11,801 nt of DNA from UHGV virus genome UHGV-0074586; one strand, 5' to 3'. Each line of letters starts with the position of its first letter. Position 1 is the first letter of the stretch. The notes under the pieces are model-generated. The model did not search any database. It was not told where the DNA came from and was given only the letters and a program-made list of their open reading frames with translations. The stretch is from a virus. The translations under genes were made by a program, and so were the position numbers. Below, piece by piece: positions 265 through 11,278 of this stretch.

Positions 265-654
265 TTAGTCAGCGAAGGTTAAGACGAGAATTACCTTAAT
301 GATGTCTGCTACAACAGACACGGCCATAGATAAACCAAAGACAATCCAAGCCATAGAGATGTCTTCACTACCATCGTATAGAGTTCCGTAATCACTGGTG
401 TAAGGCGTAAATGTCGCGCCTTGATACAACAGGTATAAGCTTGAACCATAGAGGATAAATGCAGATATCCCTTGTATTGCTATGATCACTAGAATCATGA
501 AACGAGCTGATCTATGCGCCCAAGCCTGGCTTATTTTTTCTGATAGAGATTTCGCAATAAAAGCATGCGCTAAGCCGTAAATTGTCGAGATTGACAACAT
601 CCCAAAAAAGCTTGCTATAGCGGTTCCAACCATAATCGCCCCTTGCGTGATCAA
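265..654 (-). CDS. small multi-pass inner-membrane protein in the rexB position, immediately downstream of cI; candidate superinfection-exclusion or abortive-infection protein
   Basis: 129-aa ORF with about four hydrophobic helices. Its start overlaps the cI stop in an ATGA arrangement (651..654), implying co-translation with the repressor. Function inferred only from position and topology. Confidence 0.6.
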   Translation of the reverse strand: MITQGAIMVGTAIASFFGMLSISTIYGLAHAFIAKSLSEKISQAWAHRSARFMILVIIAIQGISAFILYGSSLYLLYQGATFTPYTSDYGTLYDGSEDISMAWIVFGLSMAVSVVADIIKVILVLTFAD

Positions 655-1362
655 ACCAGCCTTAGTTTTGTCTCAATTGCAACGCCTATAATCTTGCAGT
701 TTCCATTGATTGGCACGAGAGGCCATGCAGGATTAAGTCCCTTGAGGTATTTATTTCCGCCGTCGATTATCAGCTTCTTGAATGTTGCTTCGTTAGAGTC
801 AGAAAGTTTTGCTATGACCAAGCTGCCGTTGATCGCCTCCCTTCCGGTATCGAAAAGAACGAATGTTCCCTCTGGAATGCTTAACCCAACCGGTGCCGTC
901 ATTGAATCACCTTCCACTTTAAGCCAGAACGCATTACCTTGAATATGCGCGTCAGACTCAAGCCAAACATCTATGTCTTTAATGGTGTATGGTTCGCATG
1001 CTTCACACCACGAGCCAGCCTGGATACTGCTTAACACCGGATACCTCTTTCCTGCTCTGTATTCCCCTGCATACCTTACGTTGGCATCGCTCTTAAGGCT
1101 TTCTGCCTGTTCTGCAACCTTGGCAGCAATTGACTGGCTAAAATCAGCAATTGAGACTTGCAACAGTCGTGCAAAACCAGATGCAACCGTTTAGCGCGTT
1201 TCTGCCATTAAGATAATGCCCTACCGCTCCTTGGGTGATACCCAGTTCATCAGCGATTGAGTATTGGGTTATTCCCAATTCTTTCTTTTTTGACTCATAC
1301 AAAGCCTTAAGCCGCTTAGCGTCTTCGAGCTGTTCTGTCGTCAGTGATTTTTTATTTTCCAT
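651..1362 (-). pseudogene. cI: cI-like repressor (N-terminal HTH plus C-terminal S24/LexA-type autocleavage domain) interrupted by a frameshift near 1185..1191
   Basis: ORF 1144..1362 encodes an HTH domain resembling lambda cI ([26 protein letters not shown]...). ORF 651..1163 in another frame encodes the S24 domain (Ala-Gly site, GDSMTAP serine motif, FKKL lysine motif). Reading by hand, removing one C from the CC at about 1187..1188 restores a continuous ...[23 protein letters not shown]... protein. Confidence 0.75.
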
Positions 1363-1368
1363 AGCTTA

Positions 1369-1397
1369 ATTCTAATAGCTAAGGTACTTAAACTAAA
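1369..1397 (-). promoter_or_regulatory. PRM-like maintenance promoter for cI (leaderless transcript)
   Basis: On the minus strand a TAGAAT -10 hexamer (plus coords 1374..1369) lies 6 nt upstream of the cI ATG at 1362, as in lambda where the cI mRNA starts at the AUG. The -35 (about 1392..1397) is weak and abuts operator A, consistent with an activator-dependent promoter. Confidence 0.4.
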
Positions 1398-1438
1398 AAT
1401 ACCCTGAGTATTGATTGCTTTGAATACCTGTAGTATTC
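1398..1438. promoter_or_regulatory. two palindromic operator sites (OR2-like AATACcctgaGTATT at 1398..1412; OR1-like GAATACctgtaGTATTC at 1422..1438)
   Basis: Two near-perfect inverted repeats sharing the half-site AATAC/GTATT, centres about 25 bp apart, overlapping the -35 and -10 of the rightward promoter. A third site was not found. Confidence 0.6.
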
Positions 1439-1439
1439 T
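1411..1439 (+). promoter_or_regulatory. PR-like early rightward promoter (TTGATT, 17-bp spacer, TATTCT)
   Basis: -35 at 1411..1416 and -10 at 1434..1439 with 17-bp spacing, about 30 nt upstream of the cro start and overlapped by both operators. Confidence 0.5.
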
Positions 1440-1468
1440 TTGTTCATGGTTAATAACGGAGAGTGCAT

Positions 1469-1663
1469 ATGATTCGAATGACACTTGCCGATTACGCCAA
1501 AATCCATGGACAGGCTAAAGCAGCCAGTGACTTTGGTGTAATCCAGTGCGCTATCAGCAAGGCCATTCTGGCAGGCCGTAACATTATGGTTACGGTAAAG
1601 CCTGATGGCAGTGTGATTGGAGAGGAAGTTCGTCCTTTCCCAAGCAACAAGAAAAACAAATAG
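1469..1663 (+). CDS. cro: Cro repressor
   Basis: 64-aa product ([64 protein letters not shown]) is colinear with lambda Cro. GGAG at 1458..1461 is 7 nt upstream of ATG 1469; the ORF-track start at GTG 1463 is probably too early. Confidence 0.88.
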
Positions 1664-4549: not shown

Positions 4550-4653
4550 TGACCATCTACATCACTGAGCTAATAGCAGGGTTATCGTTACTAATGGTTC
4601 TTACTGTATATATTATTAAGTATATTCTTTATGCGAATAAAAAAACTAATTGA
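4549..4653 (+). CDS. 34-aa hydrophobic single-pass peptide, translationally coupled to the helicase stop
   Basis: ATG 4549 overlaps the helicase TGA (4547..4549) with AGGAGG at 4538..4543. Product MTIYITELIAGLSLLMVLTVYIIKYILYANKKTN. Caveat: AT-rich DNA yields hydrophobic ORFs by chance. Confidence 0.3.
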   Translation: MTIYITELIAGLSLLMVLTVYIIKYILYANKKTN

Positions 4654-5242
4654 TCACGATGAGCTTCTGTCAACATTATCATATGACTCAGAAACAGGAA
4701 TATTTAAATGGCTAAAAACAAATTCAGTAGTAAGAGTAAAAGGTAGTATTGCTGGAGGTGTTAGTGGTGGTTATATATGCATTAGCATAAATAATGTTTT
4801 GTATTATGCGCATAGACTTGCTTGGTTCTATGTATACAAAAAATGGCCTCCTAAGTTTATTGATCATGTAAATGGGAACAGACTTGACAATAGGATTTCA
4901 AATCTAAGACTGGCAACAGAAGAGCAGAATGCAAGAAACATTGTAGGGAATAGGTTAAACACATCCGGTGCGATTGGAGTGTCTTGGTATAAGCCAACTG
5001 GCAGGTGGAAGTCTTATGTTGGTTATAAAAATAAGACAATATCGTTAGGGTATTTCGATAGCAAAGAAGATGCAGCATTCATAGCAGCACTAGCAAGAAA
5101 GAAACTATATGGAACTTATGCGAGTAAAGCACTTAATTGCGAGCATGAGCTTTTATCTCAATTTAATAATGATGAGGATAAACTTGCGGAATATCTTAAG
5201 GAAAAATCTAAAAGGACTCGAAAGCGTGTTAAAAAAAGATAA
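4631..5242 (+). CDS. HNH homing-type endonuclease with C-terminal AP2 DNA-binding domain
   Basis: HNH motif (YYAHRLAWF...IDHVNGNRLDNRISNLRLATEEQNARN) and AP2-like segment (GVSWYKPTGRWKSYVGYKNKTISLGYFDSKEDAAFIAA). The gene sits in a visibly AT-rich island unlike its neighbours. Confidence 0.85.
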   Translation: MRIKKLIDHDELLSTLSYDSETGIFKWLKTNSVVRVKGSIAGGVSGGYICISINNVLYYAHRLAWFYVYKKWPPKFIDHVNGNRLDNRISNLRLATEEQNARNIVGNRLNTSGAIGVSWYKPTGRWKSYVGYKNKTISLGYFDSKEDAAFIAALARKKLYGTYASKALNCEHELLSQFNNDEDKLAEYLKEKSKRTRKRVKKR

Positions 5243-7441: not shown

Positions 7442-7626
7442 ACGCCACAATTCAAACGATACCAGAGCTTCTTATCCAGACACGAGGCAATCAGACCGAA
7501 GTGGCGAGGATGCTTTCCTGCGCAAGAGGAACAGTGCTCAAGTACAACCGAGACAGCAAAGGCGAGCTTCACGTAATAGTTAACGGCGTCCTGATGGTCA
7601 AACAGGGCAAGAGGGGAAGACGATGA
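7438..7626 (+). CDS. ninH: NinH
   Basis: 62 aa with the ...GNQTEVARMLSCARGTVLKY...VIVNGVLMV core matching lambda NinH. ATGA overlaps on both sides. Confidence 0.8.
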   Translation: MNATIQTIPELLIQTRGNQTEVARMLSCARGTVLKYNRDSKGELHVIVNGVLMVKQGKRGRR

Positions 7627-8111
7627 GCATAAGAGAACTAAACCTCACCAAAGAGCAGCACGAGTGGCTGAATGGCTGGCTTGAACTGTGGGGCGCATGG
7701 GTTTATTCAGGTCGTCTGGAAAAGCGCATGAGCAGCGTAATAGCGAAGTTCATGGAGAGCGTAGAGCCGGGAAGAGTTATGACAAGGCCAATGTGCAATG
7801 ATGATGATGGAATGTTGATTTCTCAGGTCGTCGATTCCGTCATGTACATTGACAAGAAAGCCTTTGGAATCCTCCTCAGCTACTACGCTCATGGCTCTTC
7901 CAAGCACGCCATTGCATCTTACTATCATCGCGTCGCAAGACCTCGCAAGATGTTATGCCGTGGCGGCGGGCGCATTCAAAAACCATCGCTCGCAACCTGT
8001 CGACGGGAAGTTGACGAAATCCTTAATGCCTCGTTGTTTATGATTTACCCGGTTCTGGATAGTGCGTTTAAAAACCGGAAACGTGTAGAGAAAATTAAAC
8101 ATGTAGCATAG
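7623..8111 (+). CDS. Q-like late-gene antiterminator (non-lambda Q type)
   Basis: 162 aa, last gene before the lysis region. WGAW...RPMCNDDDGMLIS...YYAHG motifs resemble the Q proteins of 933W/82-type phages, not lambda Q. Assigned from memory and position. Confidence 0.65.
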   Translation: MSIRELNLTKEQHEWLNGWLELWGAWVYSGRLEKRMSSVIAKFMESVEPGRVMTRPMCNDDDGMLISQVVDSVMYIDKKAFGILLSYYAHGSSKHAIASYYHRVARPRKMLCRGGGRIQKPSLATCRREVDEILNASLFMIYPVLDSAFKNRKRVEKIKHVA

Positions 8112-8519: not shown

Positions 8520-8548
8520 TTGAAAACGAGTTTTGAAACTGCATAATT
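8520..8548 (+). promoter_or_regulatory. sigma70-like promoter (TTGAAA, 16-bp spacer, CATAAT) preceded by phased A-tracts
   Basis: -35 at 8520..8525, -10 at 8542..8547 with a TG just upstream. The preceding 40 bp holds repeated TGCAAAAA/TTGAAAAC A-tracts at roughly helical phasing (8492..8526). Confidence 0.35.
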
Positions 8549-8630
8549 CCTATATGCTCGGACGTCAAAGGCGAAAGAGCTTACCCACCAGCGAAGATGC
8601 CTTGTGCGGAGCGGTGGGAAACACATTCAA

Positions 8631-8658
8631 GCCCTTGCAGAAATGCAGGGGCTTTTTT
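8631..8658 (+). terminator. strong rho-independent terminator in the leader upstream of the insertion operon
   Basis: 9-bp stem GCCCTTGCA/TGCAGGGGC (one G-U pair) with GAAA tetraloop, then TTTTTT. It lies 30 nt upstream of the first operon ATG and inside the ORF-track 5' extension that starts at TTG 8533. Confidence 0.7.
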
Positions 8659-8688
8659 ATTGGCTCAGTGCCACCAGGTGAACACCGT

Positions 8689-9240
8689 ATGCACACGGCG
8701 ATCATTTGCGCTTCCGGACCTTCCCTCACCCACGACGACTGCCAGAAAGCCATTGGCGCTGGATTACCCGTTATTGCGGTGAATTCTTCATGGCGCGCGG
8801 TGCCGGGATGCTCTCACATTTACGCGGGTGATCTGCGCTGGTGGGATGTGAACATTCCCGCGCTGCCCGATGGCCCCGAACGCTGGTCATGTAACCGGAG
8901 AGCACACACCCGATACGGCGTGAGCCTCTTCCCGACAGATACCAGCGGCACATTCAATTCGGGGCAGAGAGCAATCCTGTTCGCTCACTGGCTGGGTGCC
9001 AGTAGCATCATCCTGCTGGGCTTCGATTGCTCAATCTCAAACGGTAGTCACTGGCACGGCGATCACACAGTCCTCGATAACCCGACAGCAGCGAACGTAA
9101 AGCGCTGGCATGGCGAGTTTGCCCGGGTTGCGGCGCAGCTGCGTGGAAGCGTCAATATCATCAACAGCAGCCGCCAGACGGCGCTTAATTGCTTTCGTCG
9201 CTTACCTCTTGAAGCTGCGATCAGCGAGGTTACATGCTGA
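8689..9240 (+). CDS. hypothetical protein with Cst/GT42-like (DUF115/MptE-like) CMP-ulosonate transferase-fold signatures
   Basis: 183 aa from ATG 8689 (AGGTGA 7 nt upstream). IICASGPSL...PVIAVNSSW and FNSGQRAILFAHWLGASSIILLGFDCSISNGSHWHGDH parallel the GNGPSL, RCN, TSG...LGY...LSGIDFY and SHYIGH motifs of Campylobacter Cst-type sialyltransferases as I recall them. Fold-level inference only. Confidence 0.45.
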   Translation: MHTAIICASGPSLTHDDCQKAIGAGLPVIAVNSSWRAVPGCSHIYAGDLRWWDVNIPALPDGPERWSCNRRAHTRYGVSLFPTDTSGTFNSGQRAILFAHWLGASSIILLGFDCSISNGSHWHGDHTVLDNPTAANVKRWHGEFARVAAQLRGSVNIINSSRQTALNCFRRLPLEAAISEVTC

Positions 9241-10175
9241 ATCCTCCGATTTACATCGATGGCATGCTGGGAATGGGAGATACCATTTACCAGCGCGCTT
9301 TCGTCAAACAACTGCCTGCTGGGACATTCATTAAGACGGCATGGCCGGAGCTTTACGAAGATCTGCCGGTGAAAGTTGTCCGAAGTGACACCACGCTCAG
9401 AACGCAGCGTAAAAATGAGTTTCGCAGTTCGGCAAAGTTTTATCCGCCGCCATCGCCACGACAGACGAAGCGAATATTTTACGGACCGTATGATCTGCGG
9501 CGCGGTTCGATATTTGATGCGATGCGACGCCAGTTCGGCGTAACGCCAGCAGCGCTTGATTTGCCATCCTTTGGCCCGTCGCAGTTTACGCACCAAAAGC
9601 CGATCGCCGTTATCCGTCCGGCAACGGTTCGTTCTGAATGGCGTAGCGACTCCCGAAACCCTGACCCCGATTACCTCCTGCGCGCATCGAGAATCCTGCG
9701 GAAACATTTCTGCGTGATTAGCGTTGCTGATTTGCAGGACGGGGAAGAGTGGCTGGTGGGCGAAGAACCAGAGGCGGATCTGAAAATGCACGCTGGCGAG
9801 CTCAATATCAAAGAGCTGATGCGCCTGGTTGAGCATGCCGCTGTCGTGGTTACGCCTGTTGGCTGGGCGCTGCCCGCTGCCATTGCGTACAAAACACCTG
9901 TTTACGTTGTCGCTGGTGGGCGCGGTGGGCATAACGCTCCCGAGATAGTCACCGATCCGGCGATGGATTTATCCCGCGTTGGCTGGGCAATCCCGGACAA
10001 TTATTGTCGCTGCGAAGCGTGGGATCACCATTGCGACAAACGCATCTTCAACTTTGATTCAAAATTCGAGACATGGCTGAATGAAGTCGTTTTATCAGGA
10101 ACTGAACAGCGGGCTGGTATTCCTCCCGGAGCTGGGCATCGGTCGTTATCCGGTTCCGGCATCACGCCCGTATGA
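9234..10175 (+). CDS. hypothetical protein with glycosyltransferase family 9 (ADP-heptose:LPS heptosyltransferase)-like fold; 3' boundary uncertain
   Basis: ATG overlaps the upstream stop (ATGCTGA). N-terminal IYIDGMLGMGDTIYQRAFVKQL and C-terminal ELNIKELMRLVEHAAVVVTPVGWALPAAIAYKTPVYVVAGG follow the GT9 pattern, but the canonical DTGPMHLAAA motif is replaced by TPVGWALPAAIA. The ORF runs 95 nt into the next gene. Confidence 0.45.
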   Translation: MLNPPIYIDGMLGMGDTIYQRAFVKQLPAGTFIKTAWPELYEDLPVKVVRSDTTLRTQRKNEFRSSAKFYPPPSPRQTKRIFYGPYDLRRGSIFDAMRRQFGVTPAALDLPSFGPSQFTHQKPIAVIRPATVRSEWRSDSRNPDPDYLLRASRILRKHFCVISVADLQDGEEWLVGEEPEADLKMHAGELNIKELMRLVEHAAVVVTPVGWALPAAIAYKTPVYVVAGGRGGHNAPEIVTDPAMDLSRVGWAIPDNYCRCEAWDHHCDKRIFNFDSKFETWLNEVVLSGTEQRAGIPPGAGHRSLSGSGITPV

Positions 10176-10690
10176 CGAGCAGTATTTCGCGAAGTATCAG
10201 CAGCTTGCCGACACCGAAACGGGCAGAGCCTTAACGCAATCCCGTATTGAGCTGGTGGCGCGCCATTTTCACGGTCCTGTTCTCGACGTTGGTATCGGTG
10301 CCGGTCAGTTCGTCTCTACCCGACCGGGAACGCTTGGGTATGACGTTAATCCGGCTGGTATCGCCTGGCTGAACGAGCGGGGCGCATTCGCTGACCTCTA
10401 GTCAGGGGCGCGCGCTGACGATGTGGGATGTCCTGGAGCACATCGACGAGCCGGAGCTGGCGGTACAGCAGGCTACAGAGTTTGTTTTCGTGTCGATCCC
10501 CATTTTTACCGATGCCGGAGACATTCTTCGCTCGCACCATTTCAGGAAGAACGAGCACATCTGGTATTTCACTGACGACGGTATTAAGCGCTGGTTTGCA
10601 GAGCAGGGCTTCGAATGCGCTGAACAGAACACAATCGAATGCCAGTTAGGGCGTAAGGGCGTCGCTTCGTACGCTTTCCGCCGCGTTTAG
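10081..10690 (+). pseudogene. class I SAM-dependent methyltransferase split by a frameshift near 10395..10402
   Basis: ORF 10081..10401 carries motif I (VLDVGIGAGQF) and an acidic beta-2 end (GYDVNP). ORF 10421..10690 in another frame carries the DVLEH motif. The frame upstream of 10421 reads ...SSQGRALTMWDVLEH, so one indel just before the TAG at 10399..10401 would restore a single protein of about 200 aa. Confidence 0.6.
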
Positions 10691-10764
10691 TCCCCTCTTA
10701 GCCCATTGCATTTGGGTTTATTCCAGTTTCGCACACATCACCCGCAAACAGGCGAGGTCAACCT

Positions 10765-10954: not shown

Positions 10955-11278
10955 ATGAAGATGCCAGAAAAACATGACCTGTTAGCCGCCATTCTCGCGG
11001 CAAAGGAACAAGGCATCGGGGCAATCCTTGCGTTTGCAATGGCGTACCTTCGCGGCAGATATAATGGCGGTGCGTTTACAAAAACAGTAATCGACGCAAC
11101 GATGTGCGCCATTATCGCCTGGTTCATTCGTGACCTTCTCGACTTCGCCGGACTAAGTAGCAATCTCGCTTATATAACGAGCGTGTTCATCGGCTACATC
11201 GGTACTGACTCGATTGGTTCGCTTATCAAACGCTTCGCTGCTAAAAAAGCCGGAGTAGAAGATGGTGGAAATCAATAA
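10955..11278 (+). CDS. S: holin S (S107/S105 dual-start class I holin)
   Basis: 107 aa, essentially lambda S as I recall it. Met1-Lys2-Met3 dual-start motif at 10955..10963 and a CCCC...GGG stem upstream. Confidence 0.95.

Follow-up and report, generated by a model that had tools for sequence, protein, structure and literature searches.

The cI–cro intergenic region of a metagenomic virus contig very probably represents the right operator of the HK620-type lambdoid immunity module

In phage lambda, the right operator region separates the divergent genes cI, coding for a repressor with a helix-turn-helix (HTH) and an S24 peptidase domain, and cro. It carries three 17-bp operators with a central base pair, the first of which, OR3, lies 10 nt from the cI ATG. 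The −35 element of PR is placed over the end of OR2 and its −10 element in OR1, the −10 element of PRM extends over the start of OR3, and cI is leaderless. The closest described relative of the locus studied here is the immunity region of phage HK620, whose record (AF335538) annotates OR3, OR2, OR1, pR, OL1–3, pL, nutL, nutR, and tIMM, with no PRM annotated. The record reportedly stems from Clark et al. 2001 (J Mol Biol 311:657). Its operator calls are themselves computational, and no published binding, footprinting, or EMSA data on the HK620-type cI or Cro were found in the searchable literature. The HK620 immunity group also comprises mEpX2, HK630, HK140, HF4s, phi296, and some Stx2c phages, which share identical OR DNA, a cro gene at 99.8–100% identity, an hkaS-like gene in the rex position, OL2, and cII.

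The stretch of DNA analyzed here, referred to as the window, is 11,801 nt long and corresponds to an entire metagenomic contig of the ENA assembly ERZ773198 (NODE_2034, cov_3.31), sequenced at 3.3x coverage. Its cI–cro intergenic region occupies in full positions 1363–1468, between the cI ATG (complement of 1360–1362) and the cro ATG at 1469. Megablast of the segment 640–2060 against phage genomes returned full-length matches of 98–99% identity to mEpX2, HK620, HK630, HK140, phi296, and some Stx2c phages. Window positions 1190–1500 are 100% identical to both HK620 and mEpX2, and the longer segment 1190–1663 is 100% identical to mEpX2 and 99.8% identical to HK620. In an alignment of seven phages of different morphotypes, the intergenic region shows two variable positions, one in the OR2–OR1 spacer and the other near the ribosome-binding site of cro. 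The module is present in 146 of the 5426 complete Escherichia coli genomes (about 2.7%).

Taken with the layout described below, this identity makes it very probable that region 1363–1468 is the OR of an HK620-type lambdoid immunity module, directly homologous to that of lambda, where OR1, OR2, and OR3 would be bound by cI and Cro. The first-pass annotation of the region, made from the letters alone, had reported two palindromes of 15 and 17 bp with AATAC/GTATT half-sites and had taken them, together with a diverged repressor, to define a separate immunity group. Both palindromes are indeed present, AATACCCTGAGTATT at 1398–1412 and GAATACCTGTAGTATTC at 1422–1438. As judged from sequence, they are the annotated OR2 and OR1 of HK620 and belong to an already-known immunity type: the specificity is unlike that of lambda, with differences at half-site positions 1, 3, and 4, but the group is not new, being 100% identical to HK620 and mEpX2 and annotated in AF335538. 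The features of the region are as follows.

651–1187, minus strand: rest of cI with the linker and the Peptidase_S24 domain, in a different frame from the N-terminal part
1144–1362, minus strand: 5′ part of cI, coding for 58 native residues (HTH_3) and then, out of frame, for 14 more before a stop
1369–1397, minus strand: predicted PRM, −35 TTTAGT (1397–1392), 17-nt spacer, −10 TAGAAT (1374–1369)
1373–1389: OR3, TAATAGCTAAGGTACTT, core 8/10; 2-mismatch match to the motif, annotated in HK620
1397–1413: OR2, AAATACCCTGAGTATTG; exact motif, HK620 annotation, seven-phage alignment, and relatives
1411–1439, plus strand: PR, −35 TTGATT (1411–1416), 17-nt spacer, −10 TATTCT (1434–1439)
1422–1438: OR1, GAATACCTGTAGTATTC, perfect 6+5+6 palindrome overlapping the PR −10; exact motif, HK620 annotation
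1469–1663, plus strand: cro, 64 aa, lambda-fold Cro with the recognition helix IQCAISKAI (Pfam Cro, E=3.6e-26)

When transferred onto the window, the HK620 annotations fall at 1373–1389 (OR3), 1397–1413 (OR2), and 1422–1438 (OR1), with the operator centers at 1381, 1405, and 1430, respectively. Read from the cI ATG to the cro ATG as ATG–OR3 gap, OR3, spacer, OR2, spacer, OR1, and OR1–cro ATG, the layout is 10/17/7/17/8/17/30 nt in the window and 10/17/6/17/7/17/26 nt in lambda. The two regions are collinear, with the same 10-nt gap and the same three 17-bp operators with a central base pair, while the operator spacers are 1 nt longer here (7 and 8 nt versus 6 and 7). The earlier observation that the spacing of OR1 and OR2 mirrors that of lambda is borne out in this form.

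The predicted promoters are embedded in the operators as in lambda. The −35 hexamer of PR, TTGATT, straddles the end of OR2, whose last 3 nt are its start, and the −10 hexamer TATTCT overlaps OR1, in keeping with the overlap between palindromes and PR noted before; the pR annotation of HK620 maps to 1411–1446. On the opposite strand, the first nucleotide of OR2 is the end of the predicted PRM −35, and OR3 extends over the spacer of PRM and 2 nt of its −10 hexamer, again as in lambda. Transcription from PRM is predicted to start on the A (1362) of the cI ATG, the −10 hexamer ends 7 nt ahead of this A, and no Shine-Dalgarno sequence occurs between 1363 and 1372. The leaderless PRM proposed previously is consistent with this lambda-like geometry, on which the prediction is based. 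In the diverged relatives presented below, the PRM −10 is kept as TAGAAT or TACAAT. All hexamers were read out by one positional, lambda-anchored rule applied to every phage, and the same rule on lambda itself returns its known hexamers (PRM TAGATA-17-TAGATT and PR TTGACT-17-GATAAT). A generic scan of 1–1800 for sigma-70 consensus promoters and terminators called neither PR nor PRM, each of which matches 8/12 positions; the two promoters are accordingly assigned from their homology to lambda and from the HK620 annotation.

By analogy with lambda, the region would function as follows. Dimers of cI and Cro would bind the three 17-bp pseudo-palindromes OR3, OR2, and OR1, which share the half-site NAATACY. 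Occupation of OR1 and OR2 by cI would occlude PR (TTGATT-17-TATTCT), while cI on OR2, centered at −43 relative to the predicted PRM start (−42 in lambda), would activate the weak leaderless PRM (TTTAGT-17-TAGAAT). OR3, the most degenerate site, centered at −19 in both phages, would shut PRM off when occupied, either by cI at high concentration, probably with the aid of OL–OR looping, or by Cro during lytic growth. We infer binding, occupancy order, cooperativity, looping, and transcription start sites from the lambda analogy. In these terms, the locus looks like an ordinary textbook-type lambdoid switch; its operators have been annotated since 2001, and it is spread unchanged over many E. coli phages and prophages.

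The first-pass annotation had assumed that an OL region would lie to the left of the window. The half-site motif and the alignment with HK620 place a second operator cluster at the left end of the window itself, composed of the following sites.

103–109: GGTATTT, right half of OL1; at the chimeric junction, foreign DNA takes the place of the left half and of the PL −10
118–134: OL2, AAATACCCGAGGTATTT; exact motif, aligns with OL2 of HK620
140–156: equivalent of the HK620 'OL3', TGGTGAAATAATGATAA, about 4/10 core positions (by-eye count)
163–179: third OL-side operator-like site, GAATACAAAGGATATTT, core 9/10, 45 bp from OL2

HK620 shows complete OL1 and OL2 sites, whereas PL is cut off in the window and the left half of OL1, PL, nutL, and N are absent because of the chimeric contig end. 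OL2 differs from its HK620 counterpart by one central SNP, A to G at 126.

The contig as assembled does not hold a complete circuit: it lacks PL and part of OL1, and the frameshift in cI leaves the repressor half unable to operate. Relative to HK620 and mEpX2, cI carries a 5-bp deletion between 1188 and 1189 (CTCAA or TCAAC, according to how the sequences are aligned), by which the frame is lost after residue 58, and the contig therefore encodes no intact repressor, in contrast to HK620. The truncated product, devoid of the last helices of the DNA-binding domain, is probably non-functional. A second 5-bp deletion (ACGCC), relative to E. coli strain I3, is found at 10399/10400, where it splits a class I methyltransferase gene into two ORFs (10081–10401 and 10421–10690). 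These two frameshifts, together with the end of phage homology within OL1, could be taken as the signs of a decaying, defective prophage with a dead cI and with PL, N, and the leftward DNA deleted, the operators being relics that answer only to Cro or a co-resident homoimmune repressor.

We consider this reading unlikely. Positions 1–123 are 100% identical to an ATP-grasp gene of the Firmicute Enterocloster aldenensis, while phage homology begins at 103, inside OL1; the overlap 103–123 is exactly one shared 21-mer, GGTATTTTATTGTGTAAATAC. Assembly by SPAdes starts at k=21, and a contig named in this way, with 3.3x coverage, is typical of this assembler. The exact 21-nt overlap, matching the first k-mer of SPAdes, therefore led us to read the junction as an assembly chimera, which it almost certainly is. 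Positions 1–102 are absent from the phage collection and from all 146 module-bearing E. coli genomes, none of which reaches into this segment. A prophage truncated by a deletion into OL1 was largely rejected on the same grounds, namely the Enterocloster origin of 1–123, the exact 21-nt overlap, and the absence of 1–102 elsewhere. The apparent loss of half of OL1, of the PL −10, of nutL, and of N is thus most likely not biological.

Some features of the frameshifts also speak against a decaying prophage. The truncated cI product is recorded from this contig only, and the E. coli matches listed exceed the query by 4–6 nt, as would be the case if the 5 bp were present in those genomes. The equal length of the two deletions points to a technical cause, and their occurrence in a chimeric contig of 3.3x coverage suggests technical error. 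The cI frameshift and the PL/OL1 loss may both be assembly artefacts. The contig should accordingly not be used for conclusions on this particular repressor. The earlier description of the repressor as diverged holds with respect to lambda only (43% identity), and it concerned a gene whose frame is broken here by the 5-bp deletion.

A second alternative, which follows the first-pass annotation, is a bipartite OR made of OR1 and OR2 only, with no functional OR3 and little or no negative autoregulation of cI. The site at 1373–1389 does deviate from the motif at two of the ten core positions (AATAG/GTACT, core match 1374–1388), and its affinity may be low. However, it lies exactly at the position of lambda OR3, 10 nt from the cI ATG and 24 bp center-to-center from OR2, and is annotated as OR3 in HK620. 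At up to two mismatches, the motif background is about 3.8e-4 per position (4.45 matches over 11801), and the chance of an OR3-like match within ±1 bp of the spacing predicted from lambda is roughly 1e-3. Moreover, distant blastn searches identified two diverged relatives, the Hafnia phage Pocitis76 (OL512804, 75% identity) and the Erwinia phage vB_EhrS_49 (MH443100, 69% identity), whose OR3-equivalents match the core at 9/10 positions, with one mismatch each, while the gap and spacers have diverged. The bipartite reading is therefore quite improbable. Since OR3 exists at the lambda position and is conserved, the sequence gives no ground for proposing that negative autoregulation is weak or absent; both the supposed lack of an OR3 and the placement of OL beyond the window were reading errors.

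The motif itself is clearly non-random. Exact AATAC-N5-GTATT occurs three times in 11.8 kb, with starts at 119, 1398, and 1423, against an expectation of 0.00 from 200 dinucleotide-preserving shuffles, in which the motif was absent; the palindromes are real. At up to two mismatches, 11 matches were found versus 4.45 expected. Five of the 11 are inside the two operator regions, and the excess consists of two clusters, 119–178 and 1374–1437. The remaining matches (423–437, 464–478, 1713–1727, and three beyond 10 kb) were set aside as chance, their number being that expected by chance after removal of the operator clusters. Two of them, 423–437 and 464–478, sit within the gene of a 122-aa protein and are both present in HK620, probably also by chance.

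The diverged relatives delineate the operators further. In loci of about 3.4 kb from Pocitis76 and vB_EhrS_49, the motif at up to two mismatches returns three OR and three OL sites and nothing else. OR1 is unchanged in the seven phages and in Pocitis76. Among the three phage types, 25 of the 30 columns of the core half-sites are invariant versus 7 of the 25 columns of the operator centers and the cI–OR3 gap (Fisher p=4e-5). The recognition helix of cI is unchanged in both relatives, except for one Thr-to-Ser substitution in the Hafnia phage. That of Cro is identical in the Hafnia phage and changed at three of nine positions in the Erwinia phage, none of them being H1, H3, or H6. In our view, this footprint and the conservation of the helices provide the strongest computational support that OR1–OR3 would be the operators of these proteins. 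That the palindromes arose by chance in an AT-rich promoter region, or serve another protein such as a host factor or CII, is extremely improbable, given the three exact matches against none in 200 shuffles, the confinement of the sites to the OL and OR clusters of three related phages with the footprint on the half-sites, their fit to the Cro recognition code described below, and the annotation of the CII site elsewhere, inside cII, in mEpX2.

The proteins encoded around OR are homologous to those of lambda. Pfam matches in the region are HTH_3, Peptidase_S24, Cro, and Phage_CII. The cI protein in its HK620 form shares 43% identity with lambda cI over its full length (E=6e-65) and the Cro of the window 63% with lambda Cro, and the best PDB matches are lambda cI (3BDN, 1e-51) and lambda Cro (5e-19). 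The Ala-Gly, Ser, and Lys residues of the S24 domain (A117, G118, S155, and K197 in HK620 cI) are invariant with respect to lambda cI, which implies RecA-stimulated self-cleavage for induction; in the window, these residues fall in the out-of-frame part.

The half-site consensus was derived from 36 half-sites pooled from the window or HK620 and the two diverged relatives. It reads NAATACY, with the conserved base found 36 times at A2, 34 at A3, 36 at T4, 36 at A5, 27 at C6, and 33 at Y7. The lambda half-site is TATCACC; A2, A5, C6, and C7 are common to both, whereas positions 1, 3, and 4 are not. None of the operators matches the lambda TATCACCGC half-sites, and the module consequently lacks the imm lambda specificity.

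These base differences can be set against the recognition helices, which are QCAISK for Cro (QSAINK in lambda) and QGAVGHY for cI (QSGVGAL in lambda). A partial 'evolutionary code' of Cro proteins pairs Gln at H1 with A+2, Ala at H3 with A+5, and Lys at H6 with C+6 (PMC6649833). All three pairings are satisfied by the Cro helix I-Q-C-A-I-S-K and the half-site N-A-A-T-A-C. Relative to the lambda helix Y-Q-S-A-I-N-K, changes are found at H0, H2, and H5, and we take those at H2 and H5 to go with the altered base pairs 3 and 4. In cI, Gln44, Asn55, and the N-terminal Lys residues are retained. The lambda repressor–operator structure 1LMB displays contacts of Gln44 with A2, of Asn55 and Lys4 with base pair 6, and of Ser45 with base pair 4. 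With these contacts, the unchanged cI residues would face unchanged bases, while the replacement of Ser45 by Gly would go with the change at base pair 4. The specificity could thus represent a clean natural case of co-variation between cI/Cro and operator beside that of lambda, with the contacts to A2, A5, and C6 kept.

One deviation from the consensus recurs. A G at half-site position 6 (AATAG) is found in 3 of the 36 half-sites, all of them in OR3 and once per phage type, the three types coming from different host genera. The OR3 sites concerned are at 1373–1389 in the window and at 1684–1700 in the loci of both Pocitis76 and vB_EhrS_49. This G may be a conserved mark of OR3.

On the left side, the site at 163–179 is invariant in the seven phages. 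HK620 annotates the stretch holding its equivalent as part of 'tIMM' (about 153–183), which we rejected as a terminator: the folding of the minus-strand RNA of this stretch does not exceed that of shuffled sequences (z=−1.1). The motif scan at up to two mismatches does not return 140–156, the equivalent of the HK620 'OL3', and the OL3 annotation of HK620 may be misplaced. Only tentatively do we propose that the position-6 G could set the order of operator occupancy by Cro and cI and that the site at 163–179, rather than the annotated OL3, may be the real third left operator. Neither the position-6 mark nor this site is in the HK620 annotation. In Pocitis76 and vB_EhrS_49, the OL spacing is canonical (21–29 bp), whereas in the HK620 type 45 bp separate OL2 from the third site. 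If 163–179 is a true third left operator, the looping geometry would be unlike that of lambda.

The differences from lambda in the half-site, the recognition helices, the operator spacers, and the rex position, where rexA and rexB are replaced by a 122-aa protein of unknown function, together suggest that the module is heteroimmune to lambda. The gene of this protein (265–633, minus strand; phrog_6534, hkaS of HK620) is located between cI and OL. The diverged relatives, for their part, share with the window the operator half-site, a tripartite OR and OL, and the OR geometry, but have other hosts and differ in overall DNA identity (~70–75%), in the spacers and operator centers, and in the C-terminal parts of the proteins. 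As far as these operators indicate, the immunity specificity is not confined to E. coli phages. The shared half-site and the nearly identical cI helices make cross-immunity between phages of different host genera conceivable.

Two other segments of the contig differ from the related phages or are rarely found. An HNH endonuclease ORF (4631–5242, 203 aa) directly follows the gene of a DnaB-like helicase; the stretch containing it (about 4553–5242) has no homology to mEpX2 and resembles a mobile insertion within the nin region. Between the genes of the Q antiterminator (7623–8111) and the holin (10955–11278), a moron-like block (8533–10690) codes for a sialyltransferase-like protein, a phrog_6804 protein of unknown function, and the methyltransferase. 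Megablast of the methyltransferase end (10050–10720) against the phage collection gave no match, and the reference for this gene was taken from E. coli genomes instead. The segment 8400–10900 is covered to at least 80% in only four complete E. coli genomes.
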